Positions 1 through 12,000 of a stretch of 64,000 nucleotides of DNA are shown piece after piece. The stretch lies in the NCBI RefSeq assembly GCF_057098645.1, contig NZ_JBXSPU010000002.1; one strand, given 5' to 3'. The stretch's first letter is position 1; every line of letters begins with the position of its first letter. A program made the position numbers. The DNA comes from a plasmid.

Positions 1-3000
1 AACAACACAGGAACTGACGACAGTGTAATGGATATACGCCAGCTTGTGGCATGGGTTGGAACGTCAATGACGTTAAAGACCATGTCCTTACTGGATACAT
101 TTAAAATTGCTTTTGCGTCGGCTCTGCCTGCACATGCCACTGGTATGGTGTTGGAAGCCATCGACTTAATTCTCGGTGACGACAAGAACCGTACAATGGA
201 GTATTACACTGCAAAAAAGTAGTTATAGATGGGACGAGTTATCAGAAGGCTGAATGCCGTGTGACAGACTTTGCTCATCTTACGTTTTACGGTTTTCTGA
301 GTGCAAACGGAACTGAAACTTTCGTGATTGCACAAGATGGAAATCAATATATAGGTCTGAAGCAGCATAATAATGACTATTCATTTATTTGTTATGAAGT
401 CTGTAACAAAGATATGGAAGCCATGATTAAGGGCCTTGAATCAAAAGGATTCATGTATCAAGGGAGCATTCAATCGGCGGATGTCGAAAATGAATTTCCT
501 GGAATTCTTTTAACAACACTTGAAAAGTAATATTATTAACCCTATCGGGAAATCTTTCCCGACGGGGAGGTTTTCCCATTTCTAAATCTGGAGAAAACCT
601 ATGACTTTCAATACTTCTAAACTTAATAAAGTTTCTGCAAAGGAAATCAGTGAAAACTTTATAAAAGCATATCCTGACTTGCAGGAAGGTGCTGTTATAA
701 CAAAAATTGAAATTAGTGGGTGTCAGGGCTCTCGGCGAACTGATAAAATCGAACTGTCCTATGGCGGTGATGATATAACAGACCAGAAGAGCGTGTCTAA
801 AAGCGAAGTTCGCTGGATAGACATAAAGGCACTGAGTTTCAAAAGCACTATCACTAGTCGAATTTCAACCCTTTGTTCACGGTTGTGCATCCGCTATAGC
901 AATATGTGGATACTGCCAGTTGAAAGGATGGAGGAGTTTCTCGAAGAGGCACAAGAAATCGAACGTGAATTTCAAGCCGGTATCCAGAACGTGGTTGATA
1001 ACTATGACACTCATATTCAGGCTGAGAAAGATCGCAGTCCGTTGATGTCAGATTTAATTGACCAGTTGAAATTGACTAAAGATGATTTTGTTAAATCATT
1101 CCGGTTTAATCTGGCACATTTCATTCCGTTTTCACCGATTAGTGTGGAGGGGGATGAAACGCAGGACTTTTATCAAGAACAACTGATAACTGACTTGGCC
1201 GATGAAGCTATGAAGGTTTATACAAAAATCAGCAAAAATGATAATTTGCGTTCCAGCACGATTGACCGATTAAAGCAGATGCAGGATAAAATAATTAGCT
1301 TCATGTTCATTCATAAAGAGGCTGTTGTTCTTGCAGAAGCTATTAAGCATATCATGAATAATTTACCAAAAGGTGCCATTTCTTCTCCCCGTGATGTTGC
1401 GGTATTAAAGCAGTGGTTCTATTTCATGAGCGATGCGTCAATGCTGAAACGTATTATCTCCGGTGAACAAAAGGTAACCGACTGGCTGGATTCCATAACC
1501 CGGTCATTCAATATCGATTCACAGGTTACAGCGGCTAACTCTCTGAATACTGCTGAGGATGATGTTTTTTCTTCAGCAAATGTTTTCAGAGAAGACCCGG
1601 TTGAAGATCTTGAGAACAAGGCAGTGAATGCACCTGAGCCTGCTGTTGGCCCTGATGAAGATGTTTCTATTCAGGCCAGTGGTAGTAATAGAGCATTTGA
1701 CTGCGAACTCGAATTGACCGGTTGGTAATTTAGTCTTGTAAAAATATCCCCAGATGGGTACTTCACCATCTGGGTGAGTACCCTTTATCAAATAAAGGTA
1801 CTCAAATGAAATTTGATTTAAAATCTTCACCACGCCATATTCAACGCCTGACGAATATAGCCAGCGTGATAAGCGGTATAAATGGGATTTATGTAATTAT
1901 TGACAATAAGGTGAGTACACCTTATTTCAACACCCAAAACAATGTCTGTGTTTTACCTAACGGTGATTATAGCGATGAGAGATTTGTCAAGCTAATTGAA
2001 GGATTCATATGTCATGAAGCAGGACACGGTCGTTATACAGAGCATGAAGTATACCGTGAAGCTTTTGTTGGAGAATTGATCAATGCAGATGGCTTCATCA
2101 GTATTGATGATGACTTGAAGGCTGATTTTCAAAACCTAAAACAAAAGCAAAAAGCATATGCTCGTGCTTGTCGACTAAAAGGACTTATTAATCTTTTTGA
2201 TGATGTCCAGATGGAAGCGAAGACGGGTATTGATTATCAGGAGGCAAAAAAACGCCTCGCGGTGACTTATGCCTTGATGGTTGAAGCTGGGCGTATGACG
2301 GTTGATATTTCTTCAACCCCTCAAAACCCGGTTCAGTTTATTGAAATGTACCTGCTTAATACATTGCGGGTTAACGTTCTCCAACAAGAAGGGCATAAAG
2401 AAACGCTTGACCCATTTTTCGATTATGCAAAGAAAATCCTTGCACCTGTAACTTCAGAAGTCGATGAGATCATTCATCAAGCTCTAAGTTGCAAAAGTAC
2501 GCAAAATTGCGATTCTCTGGCGCGTAAAACTCTGGCTCTTTTAGAGCGTTTAAGGGATGAAGCAAAAGAGAAACAGCAAGAAGAGGAGCAGTCGAAAGAC
2601 CCGCATGACGATACAGATGAATCATCTGGCTCTGAGAATGAACCTGATACCGAACCCAATGGTGATAGCCAGGGTGAAGGGGATGGTGATAAAGAAGGTC
2701 AAGGCGATGATTCTGGTGATGGTAAGGCGCCTGCGGAAGGTAATGGGTTACCGGACCAATCCGGAGGGGATGAACAAAATGCTGAGAACTCTAACGGCGA
2801 ACCTGATGGTGAGTCTGAAGGTGATGAATCGGCGACCCCCGGCTCGGATGATGCTGACTCGACACCTTCCCTAAACGACAGTTCAAATGGAAATTCTTCT
2901 GATGGGGAAAGTAACTTTTCTCCTGAACAGTGGGATATGCTTGCCAAATTGCTGGATGATTTTTTAAACAGTGATGAGGAAAGCGAGGATTTTCATGAGG

Positions 3001-9000: not shown

Positions 9001-12000
9001 AGGTTGTTGTCTAACTTGTCAGGTAGTCGTCAGATTATGAAAAATGCAAGTCGCTATCTTAAAGGCTTTGCCCTCAGTAATCGTGTTTACATGAAATACG
9101 GATGGCGTTTAGCAGATGTTGACACATCTGACTATGCGAAAGTTATGTCAGATAGAGAAATGCATGCCAGAGATGATCTTAAGGCGTTTTGCAGTGTCTT
9201 TTTTAAAGAGTGTTTCGCATCCGGAAAATATGAATACGAAGCATACCTGAGTGAAAGACAACACGCGATTCGTAACGGGTATTAATACTTATTATCAACT
9301 TATCTAATCCCTGAGGGAATTCTTCCCTTGGGGAGGATTCCCTCTTAACCGAGGGCTACAAAATGAAAGCGATTTATAAAATAATTGAAGCGATGCTGGT
9401 GAAAATGGGCTTTGAAGGTGCCGTGATCCAAAGTGTCAATCTGGAAACGGGTGTGATTCAGAGTCTAGTTGTTAAGGCTGATATTCCTGTCCGGACTTTA
9501 ATGCCGCATTTAAGGCGATATCTGCGCGATTGTGAGCCTTTATGGGGACATGACGTGGATTACCACCCTATAGCACAATATTGCTCAGGAGCTGCGTTGT
9601 TGAAGGCTGGGCCGGTCACTCTTGAAACCTTTCGGTTTGAGGTTTCAGTGTCAACTGCTCACCTGCGGCTTGTGGATGTTGAGCCGGACTGTCTAAATGA
9701 GGGTGTGAACCGTGAAAAACTGGAGTATGTATATTACCGCTCCAGCAATGCAGACAAGGATCTAATACTTGGTATGGTTGAAAAAGGACATAATTTTATC
9801 AACCATCTGCATGAACTTTTACGCTCGCGCTTATCAACGGCTTTGCCGCTGATTTTCGCAGTTACAGAAAAGATTGCGGAGAGTTCAGTTCCACAAGTAA
9901 TCACCAGCTTTTTCAGTGTTGACCATCAAATCAATGCCCAGATAGTAGTCGAACCTGTACCCGTTTCAGTCGCAGACCAGATAATTTCTGCTGACTGGAA
10001 TGTGTGTAGTGTTTCAGGAGCGGATAAGTTCCTGAACCATGTTAATCGTTATCTGTCGGGTAGGGTGATGAAGCGGCGTATTTACGCTGTTATAGAAGCT
10101 TGCGACGGTGGATCTTTATCCCTCAATGCGAACTTAGGTTGCTTTACATCACCTCTTCTCGTAACTGAGTATAAAATGGTTCAGTCACACTCTTCATCGC
10201 TTTATCGAAAGGCTATAAATAACTCGCTTAAGCAAGTTAATTCGTATGCTCCAGAGCATTCAGATGACCTGCTTTCTATGTAATTAATTTTACCCATTGG
10301 GGAAGCGTATTCCCCGTGGGGGTTGCTTCCTTTCTTCATTAAAGAGGAAGTGAATATGTTTAATGAAAGTGATGATAAAAACTTTGTTAGTGCAATGCTT
10401 AAATGTCAACTTGGCCTGAATATAAGCCAAGAGGATATTACAATATATGACAAAGAAAATCATTTTGAACAACTTTCTTTTAAAGCAAATGTGGCGCTTG
10501 ATGATTTGTTATTTTATCTGGATTTATATATATCAGAATTGATTAAGCATAATGCGCCGTATTCTGAAACTGAAGTCCTTCGGACTAAAATCAAATACTT
10601 TCTTAAAGTATATGAAAAGTCTGGTTTTCAGAACATAAGAATTCGCGGTTATCATAACGCGCACAGTACTATAGATATTGTCGATATCGCATCATTAATA
10701 TTGGCGGGGTCTGTACCGGAGTCTGAACATGATTCAATAGATCCTGTTTTAAGAAAGGAAATCTATCAAAATCGCATGAGTGTTGAGGGTAAAGTTCTCA
10801 TTGCCCGTTTTGCACTTAAGCAATTTTTCCATTCTGATTTTGGTGATTTCATCTTAGAGTTCGAGAAAAGTATCTCCAAGTGTTTGAATACTTCTCTCCA
10901 GATAATTAAATCTGTAAAGAACTCATTTAACCGTTTAGGTCAATATCAATATCAGCGTCGTGTAAAAGATGACCTGACTTTGCATCTTGATTTGAATACA
11001 GATGAATACCCGGCCTGTATGCCAGACCTTTACATCGGTTTCAAGGAGTCTGAAGGGACGACGGGAGTGTATCGCGATGATGAAAAAATCATTCGTCTTT
11101 ATACTGGCGTTAGTTCCGGAAAGGATGTTCCTGTAATGATGACCGTTCGATTCACTGGCTGTGACGGGAGTGTTTTGTCTGAATCATCGCACGGTACTTT
11201 CTGTTCCGTGGGACCTACCGGCCGAGTGCAGGTTTGTGACAGAGTTGCGTTGGTCCAAGAAGCGGTCGAAGAGTTACGGGATGTTGTTTAACCCTTGTTT
11301 TTTACCTCTTCATTCCAAAAAGTAACTTTGTTCTACCAAATGACCGCGCTACCTATTCTGATCAACTTGCAGGAAAGAATGGCGCAGTAGTACATATTTT
11401 TAATCCACCCACTGGGGAAGTCGCTCCCCTGTGGGGCACTTCCTTTAATAATCCTGAGGAAGTGAAGATGACTAATTCTACTGATAACCAGAACTACGTT
11501 CGTGCAGTACTGGCAGGCATTGGTATTGATTTTGATGAAACAGAGATGTTTATCAGTGTCTCTCATTGCCAGAGCGACGAAGTTTCGTTTACATGCAGTA
11601 TATCAGCCAGTGAGTTAAGAGAATCTGCGGGGCATTATGTGGATACTCTTAATGATACCCAACTGGCTGGCCTGGATGCGGATGCACTCAAGAAGCGACT
11701 GGTTTACTTCCTTGAGGTTTTCGACCTGGTTTCCGGTCAATATCTGGATATTTCCGGTAAACATTTCGCGACCAGCCGCTTTGAATACGACGATGTCTGT
11801 AGTGAGATCCTGAGTAACTCTGCGGACAGCGCCCAGCCAGGTGGCTATGATCGTGAAGAGTACAAAAGACTGATGGAAGTTGATGGTCAGGTTTTAATCG
11901 CCCGATTTGCACTGGAAAAATTCTGGGATACGCATTTTATTGGGCTTATCAACTATGTATCAGATGAAATAACATCCGGGCTTTATGAGGTTTATCGCAC

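Follow-up and report, generated by a model that had tools for sequence, protein, structure and literature searches.

The closest described relatives of the RNA elements reported here are a "strong translational attenuator upstream of bet" in SXT, which a review places in IncA/C plasmids as well (Garriss et al. 2013, cited in PMC4542580), and a predicted structure that sequesters the ribosome-binding site (RBS) of vcrx089 in IncC plasmids (Roy et al. 2020, PMC7498323). In IncC plasmids, the operon made up of the AAA-ATPase genes vcrx089-090, ssb, bet and exo serves to evade restriction and CRISPR on entering a new host (Roy et al. 2020, PMC7498323). We analyzed a 64,000-nt stretch of plasmid DNA (NCBI RefSeq assembly GCF_057098645.1, contig NZ_JBXSPU010000002.1; hereafter the window), in which nine plus-strand leaders between positions 540 and 11470 share a common design of ~65 nt each. 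The analysis establishes the anatomy of these leaders, selection on both of their alternative pairings, their energetics, a strand specificity at the RNA level and their restriction to these operons. Our reading, which we hold at a probability of roughly 0.6, is that the leaders are cis-acting two-state translational attenuators with a built-in anti-attenuator.

Each complete leader, or module, opens with a hairpin that we call H1. Its lower stem pairs CCC-N3-4 with N3-4-GGG over 3-6 bp, its middle usually carries a bulge or a small internal loop, and its upper stem pairs GGG(G)x with xCCC(C) around a loop of 3-10 nt. Strand B begins 0 nt after H1 and has two partners, either strand C, the Shine-Dalgarno (SD) and start region, in State 1, or strand A, the upper 5' arm of H1 with its loop, in State 2. 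State 1 consists of H1 and a second hairpin, H2, whose 3' strand is the SD/start region. State 2 has the 3' arm of H1 folded back on itself (CCC-nnn-GGG), and the whole becomes one hairpin of 14-16 bp that leaves unpaired only the first six nt of H1 and the SD region; the free SD then lies 12-15 nt from the hairpin base, beside the G-free 5' flank. The original prediction had quoted seven triplets of 5' arm, central arm and SD, every one of which is present where it was placed, and had proposed that the central arm pairs with one or the other of two mutually exclusive partners. Folding of each leader together with constrained energies supports this proposal. The minimum-free-energy (MFE) structure is H1 plus the SD-sequestering B:C hairpin, as it is in 38 of 38 non-redundant modules, and the MFEs of the eight intact leaders of the window lie between -27.6 and -31.6 kcal/mol (z-scores between -3.1 and -5.4 relative to dinucleotide shuffles). 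A pseudoknot in place of a switch was considered and rejected, as B starts 0 nt after an 11-bp H1 and needs bases of the upper stem, making the pairings mutually exclusive.

The invariant letters of the modules follow from the SD. A chain of complementarity runs from GGAG in C to CUCC or CCC in B, to GGG in the upper 5' arm of H1, to CCC in the upper 3' arm, to GGG at the 3' base and finally to CCC at the 5' base; because this chain accounts for the invariant CCC and GGG, no protein-recognition motif is necessary. The CCC-N3-4-GGG pattern is universal in both arms and would be required only if the 3' arm has to fold on itself in State 2, which counts in favor of the two-state reading. The CCCnnnGGGG motif that had been noted as flanking several elements is real, and corresponds to the 5' arm of H1. 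Upstream of H1, the 15 nt of flank contain 5% G overall in 67 modules, with 0-2 G among the 67 at each position from -8 to -1; A is usual at -1 and -2, and the junction often reads AACCAA-CCC. The flanks in the window (e.g., 525-539, 8274-8288 and 10278-10292) are rich in A, U and C, and a TAA codon often abuts H1. An E-value scan of positions 1-14000 with Rfam covariance models returned chance-level matches only, none of them on a leader.

The predicted energies set out how such a leader would work. For the 38 modules, State 2 minus State 1 amounts to +9.1 +/- 4.3 kcal/mol at 37 °C, and at 25 °C State 1 is favored by 11.6 kcal/mol. Blocking the first 6 nt of H1 brings this difference down to +0.2 +/- 3.9 kcal/mol (median 0.5), and the lower stem is worth -9.0 +/- 2.6 kcal/mol. 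Since the states are then equal in energy, the lower stem acts as a lock holding a switch that would otherwise be balanced between its two states. In 35 of the 38 modules, State 2 contains six or more A:B pairs. The price of opening the SD is 13.0 kcal/mol without a partner for B and 9.6 kcal/mol if B moves to A. Occupation of the SD makes State 2 the MFE structure in 24/38 modules, and State 2 is then better by 3.4 kcal/mol than H1 alone, so that a bound ribosome would tend to keep the leader open. In the mechanism that we propose, State 1 would be the ground state, with a buried RBS and poor translation. Capture of about six nt at the start of H1 would bring both states to equal energy, and B could then quit C for A, which would free the SD.

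The same figures bear on two other explanations. An RNA thermometer, in which the leaders melt or re-pair with temperature, would suit the temperature control of IncHI transfer and of operon 1 transcription (PMC7366339), as well as the fact that most of the non-IncHI lineages with modules are aquatic bacteria. The closed state is favored at both temperatures, however, and no opening is predicted in the physiological range; because it gains stability on cooling, the SD is more buried at 25 °C, precisely where the operon is transcribed. Nor are IncC and SXT elements, which carry such modules too, known to be restricted to the cold, which also counts against a thermometer, and we consider one very improbable. 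The dominance of State 1, which is the MFE structure everywhere and by about 9 kcal/mol, would also fit a constitutive attenuator that doubles as mRNA punctuation and never switches physiologically, H2 damping costly or toxic genes and H1 insulating or stabilizing the cistrons. A:B pairing would then act only after 3' cutting or trimming, when C is lost and B settles on A to form a long, tail-less hairpin that would shield the upstream cistron from 3' exonucleases. Indeed, State 2 is favored once C is removed or occupied (24/38), its hairpin with the U-rich tract resembles a terminator or 3' stabilizer, and the published wording, as the review gives it, is simply "strong translational attenuator" (PMC4542580). 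H1 alone, however, would stop 3' exonucleases, and the tuning of State 2 to the unlocked State 1 is left unexplained, as is the G-free flank; moreover, a weak RBS would damp translation without three covarying segments. We therefore regard punctuation without switching as unlikely.

That both pairings are under selection is seen by comparing modules with one another. A MAFFT alignment of 21 modules was too mis-registered between paralogue families for pair counting or a covariance model, and a permutation test of cognate against non-cognate strands and a pairwise mapping of orthologues were used as substitutes. In IncHI1, cognate A:B duplexes average -12.2 kcal/mol versus -7.2 +/- 2.3 kcal/mol for non-cognate ones, with the module's own A ranking first in 8/10 modules; for B:C duplexes the values are -12.1 and -6.7 kcal/mol. 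The cognate partner comes first in most modules in seven lineages, IncHI1 and six others. Among the orthologues (14 leader sets), 7.4% of paired positions have changed versus 19.1% of unpaired positions, and double compensatory changes number 11 in State 1 pairs and 5 in A:B pairs. In the leader of paralogue 2 (g12), all three strands change together between IncHI1 and IncHI2, from ATTAC/GTAAT/ATTAC to ATCAC/GTGAT/ATCAC, and in that of paralogue 3 (g13) A:B covaries from AAT/ATT to ATTTCT/AGAAAT. Compensatory change, which the original prediction took as a sign of selection, is found in orthologous as well as very distant clusters.

The same note had held that the elements act as RNA and are not a dispersed repeat, and the strand comparison agrees. 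In 30/38 modules the fold of the sense RNA is the more stable one (-28.0 vs -24.6 kcal/mol for the antisense, p about 1e-6), and G-U pairs make up 61 of the 785 pairs. The copies differ in sequence and share only CCC/GGG, they lie on the sense strand and they end at a start codon, unlike dispersed DNA repeats of the REP, MITE, attC or rpt kind. A function in DNA, whether as palindromic repeats for recombination or exonuclease pausing, as cruciforms, or as single-stranded signals during conjugative entry, has a precedent in the IncC intergenic repeats rptI-IV, which serve Bet/Exo single-strand annealing, and in palindromes proposed to pause Exo (PMC7498323). Modules with differing sequences would be unusable as annealing repeats, however; the G-U pairs and the energy asymmetry favor sense-strand RNA, and the last elements of every module are the SD and start codon of a gene encoded on the module's own strand. 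A DNA-level feature is in our view scarcely credible.

An annotation-blind scanner, which asks for a CCC...GGG hairpin with a start codon and SD 16-60 nt downstream and an open reading frame (ORF) of at least 40 codons, found nine modules of H1 plus start in the 64-kb window, all of them on the plus strand within 540-11470, with seven passing both duplex thresholds. No module passed on the minus strand or in the other 52 kb of the window, and the same restriction holds in eight other loci. A lone CCC...GGG hairpin lies far from the cluster at 61738-61762 (-14.3 kcal/mol); the scanner detected no start codon or module features there. Built from unrelated sequences, the same design reappears in pENVA-type IncHI plasmids, whose DUF3150 protein is ~40% identical to that of the window, and in a Shewanella aestuarii plasmid, which has at least 14 modules and a DUF3150 protein of 19.5% identity. 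It is also found in IncC plasmid pP99-018 (L012), where the leaders of ssb, bet, exo and the AAA-ATPase gene are three-part modules by the scanner, and in plasmids of Pseudoalteromonas, Alteromonas, Vibrio cholerae (pW7G) and Shewanella algicola. A DUF3150 profile search of genome contigs yielded 3 loci only, and a Bet search of viral contigs yielded mostly phage RecT, with no SXT copy recognized. In pP99-018, a repeated element of ~60 nt, GTGCGATAGCTGGTCGCCAAAAACAAACAGCA, occurs in 5' untranslated regions (UTRs) at ~7690-7720, 8700-8752, 13535-13587 and 17360-17400, ~20 nt before H1, and this element probably corresponds to rptI, the repeat that serves Bet/Exo annealing.

Several points weigh against the two-state attenuator as we read it, or against its novelty. 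Every structure and every energy given here is a nearest-neighbor prediction, and an opening cost of 9-13 kcal/mol would mean near-silent genes, such that the predicted ground state may be overstated. The bet attenuator would itself be this module, to judge from the statement in the review (PMC4542580) and the IncC bet leader. Broken pairs among orthologues amount to 33 in State 1 and 12 in A:B, in part owing to re-registered helices. Plasmid pMC64A of Aeromonas media (L096) carries a homologous helicase/toprim/AAA/DUF3150/VWA cluster without CCC/GGG modules, so that the design is not obligatory for these genes. (One gap of the pMC64A cluster has an ordinary terminator-like hairpin.) Finally, a terminating ribosome with the stop codon in its A site unwinds only about 5-7 nt past the stop. 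Among 54 intercistronic modules, H1 starts within reach of such a ribosome, at 4 nt or less from the upstream stop, in just 8; the distance is 5-12 nt in 18 and at least 13 nt in 28. Seven more modules stand in 5' UTRs or long gaps without an upstream cistron, and their locks are as strong as the rest. The suggestion that each gene is simply coupled to the gene upstream has therefore to be given up as a general rule, since H1 lies at least 5 nt past the upstream stop in 46/54 and the seven others have no upstream cistron.

What opens the lock may nevertheless be a ribosome. We tentatively propose, at somewhat less than even odds, that a 30S subunit does so by occupying the unstructured G-free tract that abuts H1. 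The subunit would either remain from termination at the upstream cistron or arrive as a standby complex bound through protein S1. Each cistron would then be translated only as ribosome traffic allows, and the next SD would effectively be closer. The results point to an agent that would engage the G-free single-stranded flank together with the six nt next to it, and we favor the 30S subunit as the most economical candidate because State 2 sets the flank beside the SD and because a universal machinery fits a spread from Alteromonas to E. coli. Two other inputs were explored. A promoter in each gap, giving transcripts that begin within H1 and are therefore free of the lock, was rejected, as a sigma-70 scan gave no enrichment and no site before any H1. 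The spacing of AcaCD start sites has been mapped in IncC plasmids (Table S3 of PMC4207636), and by this spacing IncC transcription starts about 150 nt upstream of H1, which likewise counts against in-gap promoters. As for upstream small ORFs feeding the 5'-UTR modules, three IncC leaders have open frames whose stop codons lie right against H1, but these frames lack a convincing SD or start, making this a weak proposition.

A factor acting in trans could instead open or clamp the lower stem of H1 in all leaders together, whether a DEAD-box helicase or cold-shock chaperone at the low temperatures of IncHI transfer, an RNA-binding protein encoded by the element, or an RNA. Every module does offer a short GC stem as a lock beside a single-stranded loading tract, and the 5'-UTR modules require some input besides an upstream ribosome. 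Nine R27 genes, R0204-R0002, are the equivalents of operon 1; they have no listed function and show a 5- to 23-fold induction at 25 °C (PMC7366339). Several genes of the cluster are without known function. The invariant CCC/GGG is already explained by complementarity to the SD, however, and no single antisense RNA could match all leaders, given the variable bases in the middle of the 5' arm. None of the ten cluster proteins screened has an RNA-binding domain, and the design works in hosts from Alteromonas to E. coli. Regulation of the whole regulon in trans thus seems to us unlikely. It is possible, though doubtful, that the leaders form an operon-wide relay of bistable RNA locks, in which ribosome occupancy or a single factor is handed from cistron to cistron, and which gates at the level of translation an anti-defense and establishment program of MOBH plasmids and integrative and conjugative elements (IncHI, IncC/A, SXT-like and marine megaplasmids). 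Each lock of such a relay would have a free-energy difference of about zero once its six 5' nt were captured, and one possible use would be to keep the program silent in established hosts and to fire it on entry into a new cell.

Two further readings concern the interior of the module. If H1 were an antiterminator and the State 2 hairpin with its U-run a terminator, the leaders would work by transcription attenuation, with mRNA falling along the operon. In line with this, the g12 State 2 hairpin (8297-8325), which is followed by the T-run ATTTTTTATT, is flagged as terminator-like, the g14 hairpin more weakly so, and T5-T8 directly follows B in the IncHI2 leaders g6, g7, g12 and g14. About half of the modules have no U-run, however (g8, g10, g11, g13 and most of those in Shewanella and IncC), so that a GC hairpin with a U-run, as in an intrinsic terminator, is not present in every copy. 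The order of U-rich then A-rich sequence is explained by pairing in the upper part of H2, H1 folds before B is transcribed so that the terminator would seldom form, and the match of B to the SD region would be left without an explanation. Transcription attenuation is accordingly improbable. The second reading is a short leader ORF of the erm or bicistronic type. Its start codon would be the nTG of nTG-GGG in the 3' arm of H1, the upper 5' arm would serve as its SD, and its translation through B would open the SD of the gene. ATG, GTG or TTG stands at that position in 26/38 modules, and in six IncHI1 leaders the frame ends immediately ahead of the SD. The stop is not conserved between orthologues, however: in g12 it lies at -14 in IncHI1 whereas the IncHI2 frame runs into the gene, and in g3 it shifts from -11 to +1. 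There is no start codon in 12 modules, the T before GGG is merely part of the CCCA/TGGG stem, and the putative SD and start codon would be buried in H1. On these grounds a mini-ORF or leader peptide inside H1 was rejected, its chances being in our estimate close to nil.

The coordinates of the modules and genes in the window are collected in Table 1. The window belongs to an IncHI1 resistance plasmid of the pHCM1/R27 type, and its segment 540-11470 is 100% identical to IncHI1 plasmids pHCM1 (NC_003384) and NZ_AP027830. The Tra2 helicase gene trhI lies directly upstream of the cluster, whose genes are all on the plus strand and form two transcription units; operon 1 starts upstream of the window and includes a gene for a CobS-like AAA ATPase. 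Searches of the proteins against PHROGs, NCBIfam and PADLOC gave only the CobS-like AAA, CobT-like VWA and primase-like toprim matches, and none for the five paralogues, which occur in IncHI1 and IncHI2 and not in the pENVA-type relatives. The cluster is syntenic with those of IncC and Shewanella (helicase, AAA ATPase, DUF3150, VWA, toprim), and we infer from this correspondence that both operons would be the IncHI counterparts of the host-defense-evasion and establishment genes of IncC and SXT.

Table 1. Modules, genes and other features of the cluster, in window coordinates (MFE in kcal/mol; z against dinucleotide shuffles).
Feature	Position	Strand	H1	A	B	C (SD region)	Start codon	Remarks
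Module of DUF3150 gene	540-603	+	540-567	547-556	568-577 AGGTTTTCCC	589-600 TGGAGAAAACCT	601	MFE -29.5, z -3.9; covariation among orthologues
Module of CobT-like VWA gene	1749-1808	+	1749-1774	1756-1765	1775-1783 TGAGTACCC	1792-1804	1806	MFE -30.2, z -5.2
Module of 73-aa protein gene	3825-3892	+	3825-3855	3832-3843	3856-3867 TCGCTTTGCTCC	3876-3886	3890	z -3.5
Module in 5' UTR of first gene of operon 2	5673-5735	+	5673-5698		5699-5710	5719-5729	5733	z -5.4; antisense fold weaker by 8 kcal/mol; no upstream cistron; two G-U pairs in A:B
Split module of paralogue 1, 5' part (H1 and B)	6282-6317	+	6282-6305
Split module of paralogue 1, 3' part	7375-7403	+				SD GGAGG 7391-7395	7401	duplicated piece of B
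Module of paralogue 2 (g12)	8289-8352	+	8289-8316	8297-8305 GGGATTACA	8317-8325 TGTAATCCC	8337-8350 GAGGATTACA	8350	z -4.7
Module of paralogue 3 (g13)	9309-9365	+	9309-9333	9315-9323	9334-9344	GAGGG 9351-9355	9363
Module of paralogue 4	10293-10358	+	10293-10320	10299-10311	10321-10332	10343-10353	10356	z -3.5
Module of paralogue 5	11408-11470	+	11408-11435		11436-11445	11456-11464	11468	z -4.4; previous stop 116 nt upstream
DUF3150 gene	601-1728	+						operon 1
CobT-like VWA gene	1806-3818	+						operon 1
73-aa protein gene	3890-4111	+						operon 1
Primase-like toprim gene	4205-5458	+						operon 1
Terminator-like hairpin	5463-5500	+						end of operon 1
174-aa protein gene	5733-6257	+						first of operon 2
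IS903B	6318-7374	-						inside leader of paralogue 1; 9-bp target duplication CCCTCAGAG at 6309-6317 and 7375-7383
Five tandem ~300-aa paralogues (292-318 aa)	7401-12424	+						operon 2
Terminator-like hairpin with T-run	12468-12495	+						end of operon 2

In the leader of paralogue 1, the insertion sequence IS903B parts H1 and B from the SD and start. This leader is uninterrupted in the related loci L001 (NZ_AP027830), L002 and L003; in NZ_AP027830 the insertion sequence sits elsewhere, within the gene. The sequence of L001, which reaches upstream of the window start, adds one complete module, in front of gene 3, as well as two variants of reduced form. In the first of these (L001 12086-12149), the leader of gene 2 is an SD-sequestering hairpin only; in the second (L001 13569-13633), the leader of gene 4 has an H1-like hairpin and A:B pairing (GCAAACA/TGTTTGC), and its B does not pair with the SD. 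The leader of the toprim gene (4112-4204, plus strand) is very stable (-60 kcal/mol) and is not a three-part module. It folds into a small hairpin and a long one at 4155-4200, with a 13-bp helix, TTGTGGGTTTCTC/GAGAAACCCACAA, around an inner hairpin, and this architecture is kept in IncHI1, IncHI2 and pENVA-type plasmids. A palindrome, AAGTAACTTT-ATA-AAAGTTACTT, precedes the gene that opens operon 1 (~10905-10930 in L001), and a half-site, AAAAAGTAACTTTG, lies at ~11318-11332 of the window, in the 116-nt spacer before the last paralogue. Both are kept across IncHI lineages and may represent an operator or an internal promoter.

If the operons are indeed IncHI counterparts of the IncC/SXT genes, they would belong to the functions that let multidrug-resistance plasmids survive restriction and CRISPR in a new host (PMC7498323). 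Should at least ten genes per element be locked alike, translation would set the timing of these functions besides the known transcriptional activators TrhR/Y, AcaCD and SetCD, and the elements would have a common control point that is predictable from sequence. The modules offer at least 67 independent sequence solutions to one three-strand switch, in which a stem of 3-6 bp would decide the outcome. They are thus clean material for studying how ribosomes or helicases open structured initiation regions, and for the design of portable switches.

Compared with known systems, the modules stand closest to the bet attenuator and the vcrx089 structure. Both belong to MOBH elements and to a homologous operon (AAA ATPase, ssb/bet/exo, DUF3150, VWA), and in both an mRNA structure that hides the SD limits translation of highly transcribed genes. 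The window modules also resemble the bet type in leading accessory operons of the SetCD/AcaCD type and in having SD and start sequestered in the MFE structure. The two published cases differ in being described, in the accounts as summarized, as single structures at one or two genes. In RNA-unfolding translational coupling, as in rpmI-rplT, atpH-atpA and f1 genes VII/IX (PMC12548453), structure likewise silences the downstream RBS and expression is thought to depend on upstream ribosomes. There, however, sequence within the upstream ORF supplies the anti-SD partner and is directly unwound (PMC12548453), whereas the segments of the modules are all intergenic, H1 is usually beyond the terminating ribosome, and modules also occur in 5' UTRs.

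Leaders with alternative folds provide further comparisons. In erm/cat translational attenuation, segments pair as 1:2, 2:3 and 3:4, and of the two ground-state hairpins the second hides the SD. The modules share the two ground-state hairpins and an alternative pairing that frees the SD, but theirs is 1:3 rather than 2:3, and they have neither a conserved leader peptide nor an antibiotic-stalling logic. In the activator pseudoknot of ColIb-P9/IncB repY-repZ, which is long-range and forms when an overlapping leader ORF is translated, an upstream hairpin similarly has a loop with complementarity to the 5' strand of the hairpin that sequesters the SD, and this loop maintains an open RBS. In the modules, by contrast, the 0-nt linker sterically excludes a pseudoknot, and the two folds are mutually exclusive. 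The refolding of hok mRNA (tac/fbi) and the tisB standby site with S1 are found in single toxin mRNAs and are triggered by 3' or 5' processing; we know of no processing site in the module leaders. There too, alternative or metastable folds decide access to the SD, and a single-stranded standby tract lets 30S-S1 reach a structured RBS, but in the modules the device is repeated before each cistron of long operons.

The original prediction did not recognize the arrangement from any described system. This holds only in part, as the bet attenuator and the vcrx089 structure are published, while for the gene-by-gene covarying family of modules our full-text literature searches found no description. 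As far as they are summarized, the descriptions of the bet attenuator contain no per-gene family of 10-17 copies, second covarying partner, lock or IncHI/marine conservation. What appears to be new with respect to these relatives is the repetition of the device before nearly every cistron, its second covarying partner, its lock, and its spread to IncHI and marine plasmids.

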